A DNA stretch of 20,000 bases from an uncultured virus (IMG/VR IMGVR_UViG_3300031227_016742) (IMGVR_UViG_3300031227_016742), one strand, 5' to 3'; shown: positions 6,655-14,715, counted from the first letter of the stretch. Made by a program: numbers and translations. Notes: generated by a model not told the origin, from the letters alone.

Positions 6655-8532
6655 CTACCACGCTCCGCTGTCGTCTTCGTCGTCTTCGTCGTCTTCTTCG
6701 GGACGCAGCTCGCTCCACTTCTTCTGTACGATCTCACCGGCGTGCTGCTCGATCTCCTCGAGCGCCAGCTCGACCGCGGCCTGCTGGCTCGCTGCCTGTC
6801 GCTGCAGTTCGACCTGCCACTCTATCTGGGCCCGCAGCGCGTCCGCGGACGGAGACAGGACGCGCCCGATCGTCTGCGTCCCGAGCCTGACAGCCTCGGC
6901 GACCATCGGGAAGGCCGAGCGAGGTCGTCCCTGTAGACGATCGAGCAGCCTGTCGTGGGCCTCGGCAGGGAATGCCAGGCCATGCTGCACCAGCACCTCG
7001 CTGTGCTCGTGCAGTACGCCAGGTTCCACCACGTTGTTCAGTAGCTGCTCATGCAGCCACCAGACCAGGCGCCACTTGGCTACTTCCTCGGCGATGGGAC
7101 CGTTGTGGTGCCCATGGACTTGGCTGACCCACCAGATCGCAGGGCGCATGGTCTGCTCACGGGTGAGGGGATCGATGTCGATCCTTCGTCCATCACATCG
7201 CAGCTCGACGGTGGCCACCGGAGCGCCTGACGGCATGCGATAGCTGATGTAGCGACCCCGGCCGGCGAGCATCTCATCGTAGTAACCGGCCCGTCCGATG
7301 CAGTGAGCCATGCTGGTACCTTCTCCGGTAAAGCTCCTGGCGTCACCAAGCTCCACCAGCATCGCTCCATCCGGCCAACGGGCCAAGACGATGTCGTTGC
7401 CCCGAATCTCAACGGGCTCGGCCTCGCTCACTCCACCCTCGATGGCTCTGTCGTCCGTGGCACGGTGCTCATCGTAGTGCATCTGGTAGGCGAGAGACAC
7501 CGCACTGTTCAGACTGAGTGTCGACAGATCGGGATGATCGGCATGGTACCAGTCCGAAACAATATCCATCACCTTCCACAAATCACGTAATAGCAGGTTC
7601 CTGACCTTCACCCAGTGGATGAGCGAGGCGAGCATCAGCGGACGGCAGATGGTCTCCAACGCCTCTTCTACGATGTCTTCTTCGAGCCAGGTCGGGTTCT
7701 CCACCTCCGCGAACCGCAAGAGATCGCCCAGCCCTGTCCCCTCTTTGTTTCCTATGATGTCTCCAACAGGCTCCTGGGGAAAGCACAGCCAAGTACGTGC
7801 GTCGGCGACGTTTTCGAGATCCACGTAAGCGCCACCGGAGTTCATCCTGGACAACACTTCGTCCAGTGGCTCCAGCTCACCGGCCTCTGCTCCTCTGCCG
7901 AACCGGATCAGCGCACGCTCCAAGGGGCTCGGGCTCCTCGATAGGTAGGTGAGCTCGGCCCACTCGTCGGTCCCGCACTCCACCTTGATGGTGACGATGT
8001 GATTCCAGCGAGACACCTGCTCGACGACGGGCGGTCCGGCCAACGGGAGCTGTCGGTCGTTGTGCTCGTGATGAGAGAAAGGATGCTCCGTGAAACGAAG
8101 GTCCATACTGTTGGTATGGGACATCTCGTCGATCTCGTCCCAGTTGATGGGATAGTCCCCTCCGTGCTCGAACCACTCATCGACGGCGATGTAGTAGCGC
8201 CGGGTCTCGGTGTCCACGCTCTGAATGCTGAAGGGCTTCTCGAGCTGCCTGGCCATCCAGGAGATCAGTGGCTCCACCCTGACGGCGGACTCCGGAGGTG
8301 ACCAGGTTTCCTCCAGGCCTCTCATGCGGCTGCTCATCATGGCCACCACGAACTGAAGCCAGGGAGCGGACCCGGGATGCTGGGAGATGGCCCAATCCAT
8401 GCGACGCTCGAGGCTGGTGCGGCTGTCGACGACCACGGGCTGTAAGCCGAGGCGGCCACGCAGCTGCTGCAGTGTGCTACGGCGGCCAGTGGACGAGCTG
8501 ACAATAGCTGTAATGACGGTGGTCGAGATCAT
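6655..8532 (-). CDS. PcfJ-like domain protein, paralogue A (625 aa)
   Basis: Start moved to ATG 8532 (ATGA overlap with the upstream stop, and the N-terminus aligns with the paralogues). PcfJ-like signature: EGTSMAHCIG..YY...GRGRYISYR..SGAPVATVEL...QVHGHHNGPI. Confidence 0.8.
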   Translation of the reverse strand: MISTTVITAIVSSSTGRRSTLQQLRGRLGLQPVVVDSRTSLERRMDWAISQHPGSAPWLQFVVAMMSSRMRGLEETWSPPESAVRVEPLISWMARQLEKPFSIQSVDTETRRYYIAVDEWFEHGGDYPINWDEIDEMSHTNSMDLRFTEHPFSHHEHNDRQLPLAGPPVVEQVSRWNHIVTIKVECGTDEWAELTYLSRSPSPLERALIRFGRGAEAGELEPLDEVLSRMNSGGAYVDLENVADARTWLCFPQEPVGDIIGNKEGTGLGDLLRFAEVENPTWLEEDIVEEALETICRPLMLASLIHWVKVRNLLLRDLWKVMDIVSDWYHADHPDLSTLSLNSAVSLAYQMHYDEHRATDDRAIEGGVSEAEPVEIRGNDIVLARWPDGAMLVELGDARSFTGEGTSMAHCIGRAGYYDEMLAGRGRYISYRMPSGAPVATVELRCDGRRIDIDPLTREQTMRPAIWWVSQVHGHHNGPIAEEVAKWRLVWWLHEQLLNNVVEPGVLHEHSEVLVQHGLAFPAEAHDRLLDRLQGRPRSAFPMVAEAVRLGTQTIGRVLSPSADALRAQIEWQVELQRQAASQQAAVELALEEIEQHAGEIVQKKWSELRPEEDDEDDEDDSGAW

Positions 8533-10097
8533 GAGTTTGGCTCCATCAGCTCTTCCTGGTTGACGGTCATCGTACCTGGGTCCACCAGCCACTCCCCAGC
8601 CGGGATCTCCACCGTGGCCCAGGCCGGGAGCTCTTGTCCGTCCTCGACCACGACCATGTGGCCGGTCCCAAAGACGTTGTCGGAGAGCTGACGCAGCGCG
8701 ATGGTCTGGCCTGTTCCACGGCTGATGTAGCTGTCCTCGTCGTTGTGTTTGTGCTTGACCACCGTCCACTCGAAGACCATGTCCTCCGGCCAGACCTCGA
8801 GCTCTATGTTGAGGGTCTCGATTCCGAGCTGGACCTCCATGGAAAGCCAGATGTTGTCCATCTCCAGGCCCGTGTTCCGGTACACATCGGCTCTTCCGTC
8901 AGAAGACCGCACCATGGCCGACAGCGTCGACTTGACCTCTTCGTGGGCGACCAGAGCCGCCTGTTCGGCCTTGTCCTGCCACGCGGAGAGCAGCCGATCC
9001 TCCTCGTCCGACGGATCGCCCTCGTAGTCCCTCGCCTCCTGCAGCTCCCGCACTTTGTCCTCGATCTCTCCGAGCTCAATCATCTCGACCTTGACGGCTT
9101 CGTAGACCGACGGGTCGAGCTTGGATCGGCGCACGATGACCGGAGACCAGATCCCAGGGACGGCGTCGCTCTTGTCGATCCCAGCCTCCTGCAGCGCCGG
9201 GATGATTCTGCGACACAGCTCGTAAGGCACCCCGGCGTTGTCCGGGCCGTTGGCCTCGGTCAACATGAACTCGTCATCGTATTCGTTCAACAGGCCCAAG
9301 GACAGATCGACCCTCGGGACCCCCTCGTGGTCACGGTAAGACAGAATGATCTTCTCACCCTCTCTCACATCGTCCCACTGCCACTTCGCACCGACGCAGT
9401 TCCGCATCACGTGCCCTTCCGCCTCCAGCTGCTTGCGGGTGTACAGCCGCTGCAGGGTCGCTCCGTCTGCCCAGCGGTACAGGACGAGCCCAGGCCTGAT
9501 GTCGGCGTCCTCGACGAGCGCTGACTGCTGCCGCCAGTACGCTCGGCTGGCCTCGAAGGCCCCCGCGAACCCGAGCCCCTCCAGGGCGCCAGGTCCGACC
9601 TCGCGGGCCCAGTCCACGACCTCGTGTATGGCGTCACCGTCCATGGTCAGCTCATCGTCCACGTGGGCGAGCCTCTGGATCAGGGAAGAAGCCCAGAACA
9701 AGCCCTCTACCGACACGTCTCCGGTACGAGACTTGATCTTGCTGGGGGTATGCAGCCTGGGGCCGCGAGTCATGAGCTCACAGATCGCCTGCTGTTCAGG
9801 GTCCTTCCTAAGGGAGTCCAGCTCGGTCTTGGCGACGGTCACCATCCATGGGATCATCGGGTCTACAGGTTGGGCTTCCGGCAGATCGCACTGGAACCCC
9901 GACATGCTCACCATGGCATCGACCGCCAGCCTGATGGTGACTCCGTGTTCACGCTGGACCCTGTCGAGTCGTCCCTTGGTCCCAGTGGACACGACCACAG
10001 CCGCCAGCCCACCGCGGTTGCGCAGCTCGTTGAGCGTGGCTCTGCGCACACGATCAGGTGCGAAGCAGAGGGCGGTCACTGGAATGATCGGATTCAT
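8529..10097 (-). CDS. PcfJ-like domain protein, paralogue B (522 aa)
   Basis: LEAEGHVMRNCVG...GEKIILSYRDHEGVPRVDLSL...EANGPDN. Shared N-terminal leader. Distinct acidic C-terminal region. Confidence 0.8.
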   Translation of the reverse strand: MNPIIPVTALCFAPDRVRRATLNELRNRGGLAAVVVSTGTKGRLDRVQREHGVTIRLAVDAMVSMSGFQCDLPEAQPVDPMIPWMVTVAKTELDSLRKDPEQQAICELMTRGPRLHTPSKIKSRTGDVSVEGLFWASSLIQRLAHVDDELTMDGDAIHEVVDWAREVGPGALEGLGFAGAFEASRAYWRQQSALVEDADIRPGLVLYRWADGATLQRLYTRKQLEAEGHVMRNCVGAKWQWDDVREGEKIILSYRDHEGVPRVDLSLGLLNEYDDEFMLTEANGPDNAGVPYELCRRIIPALQEAGIDKSDAVPGIWSPVIVRRSKLDPSVYEAVKVEMIELGEIEDKVRELQEARDYEGDPSDEEDRLLSAWQDKAEQAALVAHEEVKSTLSAMVRSSDGRADVYRNTGLEMDNIWLSMEVQLGIETLNIELEVWPEDMVFEWTVVKHKHNDEDSYISRGTGQTIALRQLSDNVFGTGHMVVVEDGQELPAWATVEIPAGEWLVDPGTMTVNQEELMEPNS

Positions 10098-10103
10098 CTG
10101 TTG

Positions 10104-10112
10104 TGCCTATCA
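10104..10112 (-). promoter_or_regulatory. Possible leaderless -10 box (TGATAGGCA, 6 nt before ATG 10097)
   Basis: Minus strand reads TGA-TAGGCA-CAACAG-ATG, the same spacing as at 11718, 12651 and 18610, but the last T is not conserved. No SD sequence. Confidence 0.35.
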
Positions 10113-11711
10113 CCTGCTACCAGGAGTAGCAACTTGCCGCTCCCAGGCTTCTGGAGAGAACGCCTCTTCGTCGATCTCGTCGACCTCGTCCCAGATGCCA
10201 TCGAGGACGACCTTGGCGCTCCCGAGTCGCCTCCCGACGAACCCCTCGATGAGCTTGTCGTCCTCGATGCCGTACAACGGCAGGACGTGTTCGTTCTCGC
10301 CCTCTTCGACGTTCTTACGCTCGAGTTCGGCCAGGATCCCGGGATGGGCCATCCTCATCCTCACGACCACCGCGGCCAGCCTGCGCTGATGTTCGTCCTC
10401 CTCGATGGGTCCGTTGTGGGGGCCCTCCACGTCTCTGGTGTGACCCGTCGAGGTCAACAGCTCGATGGTCGCGGTGGGCTCGTCATCGGCTGTGCGGTAG
10501 GACAGCACCCTGGTGCGCCCAGAGATCAACATCTGTGGGTGGCTATGGCCGCCAATGCAGTGGCGCATCCTGCGACCCTCGTGGAGCAAAGCGTCTTGTC
10601 CAACGATCTCGACGACCCGATCTCCGTCCGAAAAGACGACCACGGGGATGGTCTGATCCGCCACGACCTCCGGATCGAGCTTCACGCGTTCACGCTCGCG
10701 CTGCAGCTCGATGTCGACGACATGGCGCTCGGAGGCCGCCTCGAAAGCATCTTTGAGCCCGAGATCTCCCAGCGGGGCCTGCGGGTGTCCGGCACGGTCA
10801 TCGTCCATCACCTGGCGCACATGATAGATTCCGGTCTTGTACAGCTCGAGCCATGCGTGCAAGACGGCTCTAACGCTCTTCAGCGTGTCTTTCACGATCT
10901 CGGCGCTCCCTGGTCCTCTCTCCTTGTCGGCCATCTCTCCGATCCTGTCATGAACGACCGGGAGCTGTGGGTCACGCTCGCGGAACCACGATCGGTACAC
11001 GGAGAAGGCATCGATCTTCCCATCATGTGCCCGGTTTCCGGCGATGATCGAGCTGACGACATCCGGGATCTCTCCGTCGGGATCGTCGATCGACATCAAC
11101 TCCAGCTGAGGCTCGAGGATCCCCAAACCGCGCACCGGCCTCGCCAGAACCCTCGCCCTGGTCTGCCCGATCCGCGCCCACACCACTGCGCCATCATCCG
11201 CCCACTCCATCCCGCGCTCGATGTCGCACCCGTTCTGGTACCAGAGGTACTCCGAGCGAATATGACGGTTCTCGTCGATCTCTTCGCACGCTTCGTCCCT
11301 GGCCATCTCCCAAGCCTCACGCACTACCGTGTTCGGATCGTCCATCAACTCCTCGTCGAGCTCCGCCAGCATGTCCGGGAACAACGAGAACGCCAGCGCA
11401 GTGATCTCGAGACTTGTCCAGCTGTCGAGCCATCCATCTCGGTGGAATGTCCTGGCGAGCCACGCGAGCACTTCGGCCTGCGGGGCGCTCCCCTCACCGT
11501 CTTCGATCGGGCTCGGATAAGCCATCCTGAGCATCTGAATCACCGGGGCCGGATAGTTGCTCATGATCCAGCTCAGCCTGCGCTGGAACGGATCTCGAGC
11601 ATCCACCGTCACGGAGATCATCTCCAGGCGACTACGCAGCTGATACAGCACCGCTCTCCTGGCACGCTCTGGCGCCGTGGACAGTGTCGTGGTGATCGAG
11701 GTGGGCAGCAT
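10110..11711 (-). CDS. PcfJ-like domain protein, paralogue C (533 aa)
   Basis: LLHEGRRMRHCIGG...GRTRVLSYRTADDEPTATIEL...DVEGPHNGPI. Shared N-terminal leader. Confidence 0.8.
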   Translation of the reverse strand: MLPTSITTTLSTAPERARRAVLYQLRSRLEMISVTVDARDPFQRRLSWIMSNYPAPVIQMLRMAYPSPIEDGEGSAPQAEVLAWLARTFHRDGWLDSWTSLEITALAFSLFPDMLAELDEELMDDPNTVVREAWEMARDEACEEIDENRHIRSEYLWYQNGCDIERGMEWADDGAVVWARIGQTRARVLARPVRGLGILEPQLELMSIDDPDGEIPDVVSSIIAGNRAHDGKIDAFSVYRSWFRERDPQLPVVHDRIGEMADKERGPGSAEIVKDTLKSVRAVLHAWLELYKTGIYHVRQVMDDDRAGHPQAPLGDLGLKDAFEAASERHVVDIELQRERERVKLDPEVVADQTIPVVVFSDGDRVVEIVGQDALLHEGRRMRHCIGGHSHPQMLISGRTRVLSYRTADDEPTATIELLTSTGHTRDVEGPHNGPIEEDEHQRRLAAVVVRMRMAHPGILAELERKNVEEGENEHVLPLYGIEDDKLIEGFVGRRLGSAKVVLDGIWDEVDEIDEEAFSPEAWERQVATPGSR

Positions 11712-11750: not shown

Positions 11751-12644
11751 TCATGGGCCGTAGCGGGCCTCTGCATCTATCCGCAGCGCCTCGAGCGAGA
11801 TGGGCTCTTCATTCTTCAGCGCTCCCACGACCTTTGGAGCGCCAGGATGGGCCACGGTCGGAGAGAATGCCGCCAGATTGAGCAAGAGCTTTCTTCCACG
11901 CTCTGTCCTGGACAGCTCGCGGATGACGTCCTTGGCCACAGGAGCACCCCCGCGCCAGTCGTCAGCTCCCGTTATGGCCAGCACCCTCTTGCACTTATCC
12001 ACGAACGCCTCCCCCATCATGGACACCACCTCCATGATCATTGGCGCGACGGGAGCGTAGTCCCATGGGTCCTCTGCGGCCCAGGTGCTCTGATCCATGG
12101 ACCATGTGTGGCTGCCCTTGCCGCCATAGGGGCCCTCTCTCGCGGCGGCCAATACGAAGCTGCCAAGCCAGTCCTCGTCCGGAATCAAGGGAGCTGTCGG
12201 CTCGACCATCAAGGTGTAGCTGGCTTCGCCCTTTCTTGGTCGACACAGGGCGTGATCCGAGCTTCGTCCCAGGTAGACCATCCCCGGATAAGGGGAACCA
12301 GCCTCTTCTCCAAAGTCCCTCCAGAGCCAGTCACCGTACTCATCCCGTCCTTCCTCGCTCATGCCATGAAGATCTCCAGGATGCGCTCTCCTCATCTCCT
12401 CGTGCTTGCTTTCGAGTCGCTCGATGGCCCAGTCCGTCCCATGCCATACGTCGGTGAGAGGCGTCCCGGAGAGCCCGTGGTCGAGGATGGCCAGCACATG
12501 CCTCAGCCCGGTCCCGTGGTACAGCCTCTCCTTCTGGGGAACAATGACGGATGAACCCGTATGGTACGTCAGCCACGCCAGGGTGGTGAAACCATACCGG
12601 GGCGGAGCGGTGAAGAGGCATGAAACCAGCGAGGATGCGAGCAT
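11751..12644 (-). CDS. Putative ADP-ribosyltransferase-fold protein (297 aa)
   Basis: 'RLYHGT....AILDHGL' strand-1 motif, 'GMVYLG..D.A' second motif and a later 'LIPDED', the pattern of HYx-class/Tpt1-like ART domains. The N-terminus partly matches the PcfJ-paralogue leader. Confidence 0.55.
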   Translation of the reverse strand: MLASSLVSCLFTAPPRYGFTTLAWLTYHTGSSVIVPQKERLYHGTGLRHVLAILDHGLSGTPLTDVWHGTDWAIERLESKHEEMRRAHPGDLHGMSEEGRDEYGDWLWRDFGEEAGSPYPGMVYLGRSSDHALCRPRKGEASYTLMVEPTAPLIPDEDWLGSFVLAAAREGPYGGKGSHTWSMDQSTWAAEDPWDYAPVAPMIMEVVSMMGEAFVDKCKRVLAITGADDWRGGAPVAKDVIRELSRTERGRKLLLNLAAFSPTVAHPGAPKVVGALKNEEPISLEALRIDAEARYGP

Positions 12645-12650
12645 GAGACC

Positions 12651-12656
12651 ATCCTA
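12651..12656 (-). promoter_or_regulatory. Putative leaderless -10 box TAGGAT
   Basis: AGG-TAGGAT-GGTCTC-ATG at the head of the minus-strand gene block. Confidence 0.55.
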
Positions 12657-12683
12657 CCTCGTCGGTGCCGACACCGCCTCTGT

Positions 12684-12694
12684 CGTGCTATGCT
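12684..12694 (+). promoter_or_regulatory. Putative extended -10 promoter (CGTGCTATGCT)
   Basis: TG-C-TATGCT, with an identical 11-mer at 15539-15549. Followed by GGAGG (12708-12712) and ATG 12717. Confidence 0.6.
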
Positions 12695-12716
12695 GCCAGC
12701 CAGCAACGGAGGCCAC

Positions 12717-12839
12717 ATGCGCCGCTACGAAAAACCACTGCTCCGCAAGGCGCATGGGCTCGACTTCGTCCTCTCCGCCATCAAGCGCGGCTGGCACACA
12801 GCCTGCCGTCAGTGCTCGAGCTGCCACGGCTGCCGCTGA
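12717..12839 (+). CDS. 40-aa Cys-rich peptide, RiPP-precursor-like
   Basis: Below the ORF-track cutoff. MRRYEKPLLRKAHGLDFVLSAIKRGWHTACRQCSSCHGCR*. GGAGG RBS, upstream promoter motif, and a TGATG overlap with the next gene. Confidence 0.8.
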   Translation: MRRYEKPLLRKAHGLDFVLSAIKRGWHTACRQCSSCHGCR

Positions 12840-13360
12840 TGCCCATCATCGTCGAGGCTGCAGGGTTCATGGACCTGATGGGAAAGCTGTTCGGCGACAT
12901 CACGCCGTCGGGTATGTCCATCTGGCCCTTCGTTCTGGTGCGTGACAAGGCGACCATGAGCGAGCGGACCCTGCGCCACGAGCTCATCCATAACAAGCAG
13001 CAGTCCGAGCTGACCATCGCCGCGGTCATCTTCGGAGGCCTGTGCATGGTGGTCATCGCGCTCTCACCGCTGCCTGCATGGCTCGTCGTCGGGCCCCTGA
13101 TCCTGATGATCCCCAGCGCCCTACAGGGCATCGTCTACGGTGCCTTCCACTGGGTAGGAGCCATCGCCTTTCGGGGCGCGAACAGTCCCCTGAAGCGCTC
13201 CTACCGCTCCAGCCCCTTCGAGCTCGAGGCCTACGCCAACGACGACGATCCGGAGTATATCTCCCACCGTCGCATCTTCGGCTGGACCGGCTACGTCCGC
13301 GACTGGAGAGAGCGCATCGAGAAGTTCGAGGCATCCGCAGAAGACAACGAAGAGGAATAG
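12839..13360 (+). CDS. HExxH (zincin-like) membrane protein, putative metallopeptidase
   Basis: GMSIWPFVLV...LRHELIHNKQQSE, a hydrophobic hairpin, then SPFELEAYAN.DD.EY..HR..FGW..Y (candidate third-ligand Glu). Start moved to ATG 12839. Confidence 0.7.
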   Translation: MPIIVEAAGFMDLMGKLFGDITPSGMSIWPFVLVRDKATMSERTLRHELIHNKQQSELTIAAVIFGGLCMVVIALSPLPAWLVVGPLILMIPSALQGIVYGAFHWVGAIAFRGANSPLKRSYRSSPFELEAYANDDDPEYISHRRIFGWTGYVRDWRERIEKFEASAEDNEEE

Positions 13361-13363
13361 ACC

Positions 13364-14050
13364 ATGGCCAAGCCCAGATTCGAAGCCCGCTGGATTCGCG
13401 CCAGAGAGTCCGACTACAGCGTCATGCTCATCGTTCCCGGCGAAGACCTCTCCGTACACCTGGTGGGCCAGGCTCCTGGCGACCCCCTCACCATCCGAGC
13501 TGCCCGCATCTGGATGGAGGACAGGGGCTACCAGCCGCTGGGTGTCACCAACGCCGGCATCTTCCACTCCGGGCTGAGACCTGTCGGGCTGTTCGTGGAA
13601 GGCGGCATCACCAAGAGCCCGCTGAACCTCAGCTCCGGAACTGGGAACTTCTTCATGAAGCCCAACGGGGTGTTCAGCTGGACACCGGGCTTCGGATTCT
13701 CCATCGATCGCAGCGATCTGTACAAGCCCAAGAGCCGTCCCTTGCTGGCGACCCAGTCAGGGCCACTGCTGCTCGAGAGAGGGCAGCCCCACCCGGACTT
13801 CCGGCAGCACTCGAGCAACAGAGCCATCCGCAACGGCGTCGGCGTGAGCAGCAGCGGAGACAAGGCCATCTTCGCCATCTCCGATAGAGCCGTGAACCTG
13901 TGGGACTTCTCGAGCTTCTTCCTGTCCCAGGGCTGCCCTGACGCCCTGTACTTGGACGGGGCCATCTCGGACATGTGGACCCCCATCCGCAACGCAGGAC
14001 GCTCCGACGACTACGCTGGGCTGCTCTGCATCGCGCAGAGGATGTCATGA
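13364..14050 (+). CDS. Phosphodiester glycosidase family protein (YigE/DUF2233, NAGPA-like)
   Basis: NAGIFH...PVGLFVE, GNFFMKPNGVF, ATQSGPLL, IRNGVGV, FAISD, GCPDALYLDGAIS. GAGGA RBS. Confidence 0.88.
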   Translation: MAKPRFEARWIRARESDYSVMLIVPGEDLSVHLVGQAPGDPLTIRAARIWMEDRGYQPLGVTNAGIFHSGLRPVGLFVEGGITKSPLNLSSGTGNFFMKPNGVFSWTPGFGFSIDRSDLYKPKSRPLLATQSGPLLLERGQPHPDFRQHSSNRAIRNGVGVSSSGDKAIFAISDRAVNLWDFSSFFLSQGCPDALYLDGAISDMWTPIRNAGRSDDYAGLLCIAQRMS

Positions 14051-14715
14051 GCGCTGTCAACACCATGCTGCAGCACCGCTACGGTGGCCTGTTCAGAAAG
14101 AAGCGCCGCTTCAGGGGCCCCCTCGACGTGAACCCCTTGGTCAACATCCTCGTCCCACTGCTAAAGGGCGACAAGGAAGAGGCGCTGAAGGGAGCCAAGT
14201 ACCACCGCAAGGGTGCAAAGCGCGCTCAGATGTTCTTCATGCCAGAGACGGCCAAGAAGGCCGGAGCGGCGATGGAGCCGGTCTTCGAGAAGATCGAGCA
14301 GGCCCTGGAGGGGGACTGGAAAGGCATGGAGGGCATGGAGGACATGAAGGGAATGGAAGAGATGGAGGACATGAAGGGGATGGAAGGGATGGAAGGGATA
14401 GAGGGGATGAAATGGATGGAGGGGATGGACGAGGCCATCTTTGCGGGTGTGGCCGAAGCGTTCGGTGAGTTCTCGGGGCATGCTGTGTCGGGATCGGTGA
14501 GCGTGACCGCACATCGCAGTGGTGCTGACGCCTTCATCGACGTCGCACTGGACGCCATCGAGGACGGGAGACCGAAGCTGGCATTCCAGCACCTGTTCAA
14601 CGCGGAGATCGTCCACCATGCGAAGAACAACCAGCCGCCGGCCCACGGAGAAGATGAGCGGCTGAGGGGCGCATGGCAGAGCTTCGGAGAGATGCTGCCG
14701 GACAAGCTGTGGTGA
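14047..14715 (+). CDS. Hypothetical protein with a Met-rich tripeptide repeat (222 aa)
   Basis: Start moved to ATG 14047 (ATGA overlap). Central (M-E/K-G/D)n tract. Confidence 0.7.
   Translation: MSAVNTMLQHRYGGLFRKKRRFRGPLDVNPLVNILVPLLKGDKEEALKGAKYHRKGAKRAQMFFMPETAKKAGAAMEPVFEKIEQALEGDWKGMEGMEDMKGMEEMEDMKGMEGMEGIEGMKWMEGMDEAIFAGVAEAFGEFSGHAVSGSVSVTAHRSGADAFIDVALDAIEDGRPKLAFQHLFNAEIVHHAKNNQPPAHGEDERLRGAWQSFGEMLPDKLW
14326..14433 (+). repeat. Degenerate 9-bp coding tandem repeat, 12 units (ATG-GAR/AAR-GRN)
   Basis: Encodes MEG MED MKG MEE MED MKG MEG MEG IEG MKW MEG MDE. Confidence 0.9.

Follow-up and report, generated by a model that had tools for sequence, protein, structure and literature searches.

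A 40-residue Cys-tailed peptide encoded by an uncultured virus belongs to a family found beside radical SAM/SPASM cassettes in cellular genomes

The outlines of the mycofactocin (MftA/B/C/F) and pyrroloquinoline quinone (PQQ; PqqA/D/E) pathways are established knowledge. Both join an invariant short C-terminal core to a PqqD-type protein and a radical S-adenosylmethionine (SAM)/SPASM enzyme, and the mycofactocin cluster also includes a glycosyltransferase (GT); we know of no phage-borne orphan precursor for either pathway. Short precursors with a Cys-rich C-terminal region likewise lie beside the enzyme in the SPASM thioether systems SCIFF/CteB, SkfB, PapB ranthipeptides and 'Cys-every-fifth' CefB. 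The cores of natural products are usually variable. In the ACGX system (TIGR04340), a small peptide with regularly placed Cys accompanies a SPASM enzyme, and its target peptides are presumably Cys-repeat peptides. Here we describe a gene of 40 codons at positions 12717-12839 (plus strand) of a 20,000-nucleotide stretch from an uncultured virus (IMG/VR IMGVR_UViG_3300031227_016742), the whole of which is hereafter called the window. Its product belongs to a family that very probably supplies the substrate or precursor of a gene cassette containing a radical SAM/SPASM enzyme and a PqqD protein. The surprising part is how the family is distributed: the whole cassette is found in free-living anaerobes, whereas the peptide alone is found in phages (enzyme in 0/40) and in the candidate phyla radiation (CPR) and DPANN.

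The gene ends in TGA and encodes MRRYEKPLLRKAHGLDFVLSAIKRGWHTACRQCSSCHGCR. A GGAGG resembling a Shine-Dalgarno sequence, and probably acting as one, lies at 12708-12712, 4 nt 5' of the ATG, and the last base of the stop codon (12837-12839) is also the first base of the ATG (12839-12841) that opens the following gene, which encodes an HExxH membrane protein, giving a TGATG overlap at 12837-12841. The open reading frame (ORF), the GGAGG and the overlap had been reported in a first-pass annotation and were all read again in the sequence. A promoter motif that the same annotation ascribed to the gene was not reproduced, as a sigma-70 consensus scan of 12300-13500, with other promoter types outside its scope, returned 0 sites. 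The start is placed at 12717 and not at the ATG found further upstream (12690), in keeping with homologues of 40 aa that begin M-[RK]-x-Y. G+C content by codon position is 0.585/0.561/0.829, like that of the flanking genes, and a sliding frame plot of third-position G+C (GC3) follows the frame of the peptide from about 12700 and that of the next gene from about 12790-12840. The 40-aa protein has already been called, without a name, by the JGI/IMG, Logan and ENA gene callers; it had been described as unannotated, which is correct as to function only.

From its N-terminus, the peptide carries a leader-type motif, Y4-E-K-P7-L-L9 (12726-12743, plus strand, as are the motifs that follow), which matches the family consensus Y-x-[KR]-P-x-hydrophobic and is conserved whether a copy is cassette-linked, viral or orphan. 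The stretch G14-L-D-F17-V-L-S (12756-12776) corresponds to the subfamily motif G-h-D-F-V-L, and its F17 is nearly invariant across the family. The invariant tail CRQCSSCHGCR (12804-12836), directly followed by the stop codon, has four Cys at a spacing of 3 and one His, and includes a CXXCH (C33-S-S-C36-H37, 12813-12827). Y4 to R40 spans 37 residues. A degenerate DNA pattern written for the tail has a single match in the window, compared to 0/200 shuffles with a match.

A profile made from five sequences was searched against 1.84 billion representative proteins and returned 159 proteins at E<=0.001, of which 21 at E<=1e-10, nearly all of 38-90 aa; P0006, P0062 and P0138, which are long repeat proteins, were rejected as false positives. 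A word-indexed search returned the protein itself and two relatives with 75-78% identity, one of them a 'hypothetical protein' of a Candidatus Uhrbacteria metagenome-assembled genome (MAG). Scans at the DNA level added 57 loci in GTDB species genomes, which place the family in many bacterial and archaeal phyla, and 40 IMG/VR contigs, together with the best 80 of 366 metagenome stretches, ranked by likeness to the window peptide. For the viral scan, subfamily-specific patterns yielded two partial matches, and a tail-based DNA pattern was then used. All loci share one design: Y-x-[KR]-P-x-hydrophobic is followed after about 13 residues by an aromatic position, then comes a variable stretch, and the protein ends in C-[RK]-Q-C-S-[SG]-C-H-G-C-R. 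The Tyr and Pro of the leader motif are invariant among 80 aligned members, so the leader and Cys-rich tail singled out by the first-pass annotation are features of a conserved family. Because the tail served as bait, its conservation in the scans is partly by construction; that of the leader is not so affected.

Conservation can also be followed at the level of codons. The exact tail is encoded by 82 different 33-nt versions in 84 distinct genes, using both Ser boxes and both Arg boxes, and since it stays constant through near-randomised synonymous codons, selection acts on the protein. Between the window and its closest relatives, 7-15 codon differences are synonymous and 12-15 non-synonymous. 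Compared to the peptide of a related contig, L110 (141.7 kb, 63% GC, with six genes in common with the window at 45-61% identity), 21/40 codons differ and all invariant residues are kept. The ORF at 12717-12839 is thus a real member of the family. Its invariant core suggests a conserved product or target and not a variable antibiotic.

The family appears to be undescribed, radical SAM/SPASM peptide systems as a kind being already known. Pfam, NCBIfam, PHROG and PADLOC models gave no credible match to the peptide, and a further NCBIfam search with the window peptide (two start variants) and seven cassette-type members, at E<=1 or 10, gave nothing credible; for two cassette-type members the only matches were to cytochrome c models (c550/c551/MoxG; E ~0.04-0.05). 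A c-type cytochrome was rejected: CSSCH is present, but the matches reach ~14 bits against cut-offs of 118-148, and no signal peptide is visible by eye in the peptide sequence (no predictor was run). No match to a known metal-binding fold was found among families or structures. Among GenBank phages, neither a DNA search with 12000-14100 nor tblastn with the peptide gave a match, and plasmids gave none; a viral scan with the 522-aa neighbour gave no pattern match. The literal tail strings are absent from the searchable open-access literature (8.4 million papers), and titles and opening lines of abstracts in open-access work on phage-encoded or orphan precursors, ranthipeptides and Patescibacteria/DPANN do not point to the family. 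The CrpA/CrpC report (PMC13692751) concerns a different Cys-rich protein.

To describe the genomic setting, genes around each of the 57 genome loci were called crudely and the neighbours clustered. Six neighbour clusters recur, always on the peptide strand. The most frequent (34/57 loci) is a protein of ~340 aa with Radical_SAM and SPASM domains, which lies, bar a few extra copies, upstream at gene position -1 or -2; PqqD is either separate (87-104 aa) or fused to it, as in L034, whose genome is labelled as a Desulfovibrio sp. strain and not as a MAG. The others are a ~576-aa protein with Asn_synthase and GATase domains (23/57); a ~367-aa GT4 glycosyltransferase (17/57); a ~277-aa protein (16/57) with weak squalene-cyclase repeats, predicted by AlphaFold as an alpha/alpha toroid like that of class II terpene cyclases (predicted local distance difference test, pLDDT, 93); a ~1050-aa protein of the metallo-beta-lactamase (MBL) fold (13/57); and a ~592-aa protein without a match (7/57). 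In L112, for instance, the enzyme (1198-2313), PqqD (2277-2582) and the peptide (2601-2723) are followed by the toroid, Asn-synthase-like and GT genes. The subfamily of the window peptide, marked by G-h-D-F-V-L...G-W, occurs with a full cassette in L104 (70% identity) and L112 (63%), and also in L116/117, L120, L122/123, L125 and L147.

The first-pass annotation had mentioned, as an unverified link, similar peptides near radical SAM genes and had proposed a pattern search for the tail with tabulation of the neighbouring genes. The 34/57 loci with radical SAM/SPASM and PqqD upstream bear out the former, and such a search indeed gave many homologues. Restricted to loci with at least 1500 nt of upstream sequence, the enzyme is present in 27/45 genome loci and 22/47 metagenome loci. 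Because radical SAM/SPASM and PqqD genes adjoin the peptide gene, the family sits at the precursor position of a radical SAM/SPASM system with a RiPP (a peptide made by the ribosome and modified post-translationally) recognition element (RRE).

Judged from its sequences, the cassette resembles SPASM peptide maturation systems and is a member of none, as every curated cut-off tested was missed. The best curated model for the cassette enzyme is TIGR04340 of the ACGX system, at 183-185 bits against a cut-off of 400. Both systems, likewise uncharacterised, place a small peptide with regular Cys beside a SPASM enzyme, but in place of ACGX repeats the present family has a single tail, with Cys at every third position and CHGCR at its end, and its cassette adds Asn-synthase-like, GT and MBL genes as well as a partner of PqqD type. 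The next-best models are of the AhbD, SbtM and NirJ types; those for the heme-modifying AhbD and NirJ score almost as high as the best one, so that the enzyme is about as similar to these two as to peptide maturases. Among solved structures the nearest are SkfB (E 4.7e-16), CteB (2.5e-13), anSME and PqqE.

The other systems are more distant. Among the thioether systems, PapB scores 61-112 bits (cut-off 340) and CefB 58 (cut-off 600); the tail here is invariant over bacteria, archaea and phages, and its thioether is a predicted one. A SCIFF, ranthipeptide or sactipeptide precursor was rejected, as no curated precursor model matched and maturase scores lie under all cut-offs. The cofactor pathways share the invariant core and the PqqD-enzyme pair, but the mycofactocin maturase model scores 103-124 bits (cut-off 265) and PqqE 84-105 (cut-off 381), the core sequence is another one, and Asn-synthase-like, toroid and MBL proteins are extra here. 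Lasso precursors combine a Y-x-x-P-x-L leader with a PqqD-like B1 protein, a B2 protease and an Asn-synthase-like cyclase C, and their core begins with Gly/Ala/Ser/Cys and has an Asp/Glu at position 7-9 for the macrolactam. With lasso peptides the family shares the Y-x-K-P-x-hydrophobic leader and the cassette an Asn-synthase homologue, and the separate PqqD weakly matches the lasso PqqD model (E 8e-5, 22.8 bits, cut-off 70); they differ in that the tail has no Asp/Glu acceptor and no B2 protease was seen. A lasso precursor was rejected on the tail without an acidic residue, on lasso cyclase scores of 110-130 bits against a cut-off of 525, and on the MCGI with which the Asn-synthase-like proteins mostly begin, that is, an intact glutaminase nucleophile; these proteins score 273-306 bits on true asparagine synthase (cut-off 267). 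A known defence system was also rejected, PADLOC giving only generic viperin-type radical SAM similarity. Defence-island-like neighbours occur at some cassettes (L049/L050 +1, L004 +3, L023 -4/+4, L037 +4), among them an N6/N4 DNA methylase between the peptide and MBL genes, a 960-aa HD/dGTPase-like protein, Fic, PHP and an AAA_33/nSTAND-like ATPase. In PDB sequence searches, the MBL-fold, 592-aa, HExxH and P-loop proteins gave no useful match.

The viral copies are found without the cassette. No enzyme lies within five genes of the peptide in any of the 40 viral loci, and when the viral flanks were searched by tblastn, the one cassette-type match was an Asn-synthase-like fragment in L099. The enzyme profile, which gives independent full-length cassette enzymes 488-575 bits, had 0 matches in 33 whole IMG/VR records, among them six with a completeness of 90% or more and four bounded by terminal repeats. 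The window agrees with this picture: as had been noted from its sequence, no maturase is visible, none of the cassette proteins being detected by Pfam among its 20 larger ORFs, and tblastn of all cassette proteins against the 20 kb gave nothing better than E=0.003.

The viral contigs that carry the peptide are real phages: in 12-13/31 non-redundant viral loci, a gene for a portal, terminase, prohead protease, MuF or adaptor protein is found no more than two genes away from it. Metagenome orphans occupy comparable places, between terminase subunits (L146), between portal and MuF-like genes (L168), after terminases (L129, L171) or near internal-virion and DarB-like genes (L118, L158, L182). This placement is suggestive, the counts being taken without a background model. 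The 40 viral contigs represent very different phages, with GC contents of 25-67%, and they keep frame, leader and tail intact. In L098 (51 kb, 29% GC) and L099 (316 kb, 25% GC), an extra Cys/His-rich insert of ~20 residues precedes the tail; the Asn-synthase-like fragment of L099, its upstream neighbour, is the only cassette-type gene in any viral locus. A protein of 110-115 aa with a DGYPMDGWHRIIKA motif directly follows the peptide in L041_1, L042_2, L078_1, L089_1, L090_1 and L094 (two copies). It was considered as a PqqD partner and rejected, having no Pfam match and a DGxxHR-type motif that looks like that of a ParB nuclease. MAG bins can include phage contigs, and two MAG contigs seem phage-derived because this protein recurs there as it does in phage contigs.

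Orphan copies are also found in cellular genomes. With enough flanking sequence, 18 genome loci have no cassette, six of them labelled Patescibacteria and three Pacearchaeota (9/18, compared to 0/34 among the cassette loci); one further orphan locus belongs to a 0.8-Mb archaeon. A protein of 160-200 aa with a Walker-A-like start (ILITG.GN.GKS) was observed next to or near the peptide in 13 loci, for example at L001:3210-3803(-), L108:9301-9945(-), L043:10256-10864(+) and L126:1603-2238(-), just downstream of the peptide in L138/L142/L143, and also in L037, L175, L045 and L033. Its hosts include maturase-less Uhrbacteria, another CPR-like contig, a Pacearchaeota genome and four full cassettes. 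No match to it was found in Pfam, NCBIfam, PHROG or the PDB, and the orphan copies may have in it a minimal enzyme partner.

Do the orphan copies still look like substrates of the cassette? The leader Tyr and Pro are present in 30/31 distinct viral peptides, in 22/22 and 23/23 orphan peptides and in 56/56 cassette peptides. The length from Tyr to the C-terminus is 36-40 residues, with medians of 37-38, in viral, orphan and cassette groups alike, and the downstream Phe and the tail are no less conserved in the viral and orphan groups than in the cassette group. Because the viral set was fished by the tail alone, conservation of its leader is independent of the search. Outside the tail, the nearest neighbour of 21/72 viral or orphan peptides is cassette-linked; clustering at 70% identity or more gives five clusters that mix contexts, and the GC content of orphan loci tracks that of the nearest cassette locus (Spearman 0.52, n=89, the points not being independent). 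Taken together, mixed neighbours, GC tracking and equal conservation suggest that hosts and parasites have exchanged the gene repeatedly while selection preserved the leader end as well as the tail end.

A complex model of the L112 PqqD with the window peptide scored 0.44, compared to 0.01 for the best of three controls, and at least 80% of contacts are common to the runs. The mark used was reached by 116/157 solved complexes and 2/215 mismatched pairs; scores of 0.60 or lower account for only 18 of the 157 solved complexes, and for both mismatches that passed. The partner pLDDT is at least 52 (52-53). Because RRE-leader complexes have already been solved, the pass may reflect likeness only, and docking lends weak support to a predicted binding of leader to PqqD.

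We hypothesize that, in cells with a cassette, the PqqD domain binds the peptide by its N-terminal segment, Y-x-K-P-x-h...F, and that the tail C-x-x-C-x-x-C-H-x-C, kept at a constant distance by the ~37-38 residues between Tyr and C-terminus, would then be offered to the radical SAM/SPASM enzyme. The enzyme probably makes thioether-type links or another Cys-centred modification, and glutamine-dependent amidation followed by glycosylation may complete the product. The window copy, a maturase-less orphan on a phage-like mobile element, would act in trans through the cassette of its host, either as an extra substrate (hijack) or as a competitive binder (decoy). The first-pass annotation had offered both of these options beside a small metal-binding peptide, and the systematic occurrence of orphans in phages and CPR/DPANN genomes sharpens the choice. 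We put the probability that it works through a host-encoded cassette, as substrate or decoy, at roughly 45-50%. Action in trans is favoured because leader and tail are conserved as strictly in the orphans as in the cassette copies. The tail would be dispensable for a decoy that only binds, and it is not obvious why a plain metal peptide should have an RRE-type leader. If orphans do act on host enzymes, phages and episymbionts would have a new way of interfering with host peptide chemistry. A wider version, in which tailed phages, Patescibacteria and Pacearchaeota carry precursor mimics, with leader and Cys4-His tail frozen, to plug into, exploit or jam the radical SAM/SPASM pathway of the host, we consider unlikely; it would amount to a host-manipulation or counter-defence device based on mimicry of RiPP or cofactor precursors. 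In phages, late synthesis of the peptide, or even its packaging and delivery with the DNA, would then agree with the frequent position of the gene by those for portal, MuF, terminase, internal-virion and DarB-like proteins.

Several observations weigh against action in trans on a host cassette, and a number of them favour its strongest rival, in which the unmodified peptide folds round a metal, an Fe-S cluster or a heme bound by its C-x-x-C-x-x-C-H-x-C tail, has a function of its own in phages, CPR bacteria and DPANN archaea, and is only in some lineages acted on by an added cassette. A host cassette for this element is assumed; no cassette enzyme reaches the curated NCBIfam cut-off of a characterised maturase; and the docking result is weak. 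In the chromosomes of Patescibacteria and Pacearchaeota, orphan genes adjoin housekeeping genes (L21, RecR, GltX, PriA, UvrA, eIF-1A, TrmB), and CPR copies lie in conserved synteny, with WecG-DUF5671-peptide-GltX in L010 and L011 and with GltX and M23 nearby in L025. A search for the cognate enzyme in 14 orphan-bearing MAGs gave at best 209 bits, compared to 488-575 for true members, which, because MAGs are incomplete, means 'not found' rather than 'absent'; a search for PqqD in five orphan-bearing genomes, run without a positive control, gave no match. The 182-209-bit candidates in CPR genomes were rejected as trans-maturases, as they belong to SrmL-linked and ACGX-like systems. One such region, L100:5931-8439 of a Moranbacteria MAG (G001), lies 55 kb away from the orphan peptide and is an unrelated system, in which a different radical SAM/SPASM gene adjoins a 'PheS-related mystery ligase SrmL' that is split. 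In the cells behind these MAGs, the peptide apparently functions with no such enzyme, and near-complete phage genomes and small, largely assembled CPR/DPANN genomes repeat the pattern. The near-constant length from Tyr to the end and the conservation over the whole length, unusual for RiPP precursors, also fit a small folded metal-binding protein, as do the CXXCH and the faint cytochrome c matches. A stand-alone metalloprotein accounts best for the CPR/DPANN chromosomal copies and for the constant length, and it would be a new 40-residue metal-binding protein common to cells and viruses. However, ~60% of cellular loci place the gene, precursor-like, between the PqqD protein and modifying enzymes, the visible signal peptide and fold match expected of c-type heme attachment or a known metal site are lacking, and the partner pLDDT in the complex model is low; on balance we hold this explanation a strong rival, though less probable than action in trans.

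The remaining explanations concern the window copy itself. It could be a precursor gene lately captured from a host cassette that now rides without function: its GC content and subfamily are those of cassette copies from high-GC organisms, and the gene is mobile within its lineage, lying at another place and on the other strand in L110. Yet the intact frame, leader and tail in 40 viral contigs of diverse phages, and the invariant residues kept despite 21/40 codon differences from L110, make such a passenger improbable; no degraded copies were found in the fetched loci, where they could be missed because the searches required an intact tail. The overlap with the HExxH gene (12839-13360) could instead mark a two-gene module with coupled translation, in which the HExxH product is the dedicated protease or processing partner of the peptide. 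HELIH at residues 47-51, a distal conserved NPFELEAY motif and a match to PHROG 15610 'protease' (E 3.4e-11) do give it the look of a metallopeptidase. However, L110 keeps the order HExxH (60% identity), NAGPA (61%) and next gene (57-58%), while its peptide, 65% identical to that of the window, lies ~6.6 kb from the HExxH gene on the opposite strand, with no peptide copy or remnant ahead of that gene. Furthermore, tblastn found no HExxH homologue in the 57 genome loci, the 40 viral-pattern loci or the two partial viral loci, and only L110 among the 80 metagenome loci; and the nearest Atlas clusters of the HExxH protein are large (381, 53 and 155 members) and 68-92% viral. A dedicated module is therefore very improbable. 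Because the L110 peptide sits elsewhere, the TGATG overlap, present as first described, looks like a local accident of insertion without function and the HExxH gene like a neighbour, not a conserved partner. That the frame is no gene at all has practically no probability left. The region has 62% G+C and is crowded with chance frames, 8 kb of it containing 86 ORFs of 30 aa or more, so a bare ORF is little evidence here, and the empty sigma-70 scan would suit a chance frame; the GC3 signal, the hundreds of homologues and the protein conserved through synonymous change refute it. Action through a host cassette stays our preferred reading.

The surroundings of the gene had been called a phage-like region, which is a reasonable, if unproven, description. 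A 975-aa ORF of the window has PHROG tail-fibre matches, the window also carries a GP88 domain, a phage-type metallophosphoesterase and a NAGPA glycosidase, and the neighbour family is mostly viral in the Atlas. On the other side, no capsid or terminase gene lies within the 20 kb, and L110 carries PcfJ and ParB domains, so that a phage-plasmid or another large element is possible.

Other genes of the window were noted in passing. Two adjacent large genes, 8529-10097(-) and 10110-11711(-), are paralogous, the second with a PcfJ-like domain; L110 has homologues, a further PcfJ-like gene and a ParB gene, which are plasmid- or conjugation-type functions in an element that otherwise resembles a phage. 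A 246-aa ORF at 13975-14715(+) contains a run rich in Met, Glu and Gly (…KGMEGMEDMKGMEEMEDMKGMEGMEGIEGMKWMEGM…), and towards its C-terminus it shares 33% identity with a small ORF of L002/L121, another contig with the peptide.

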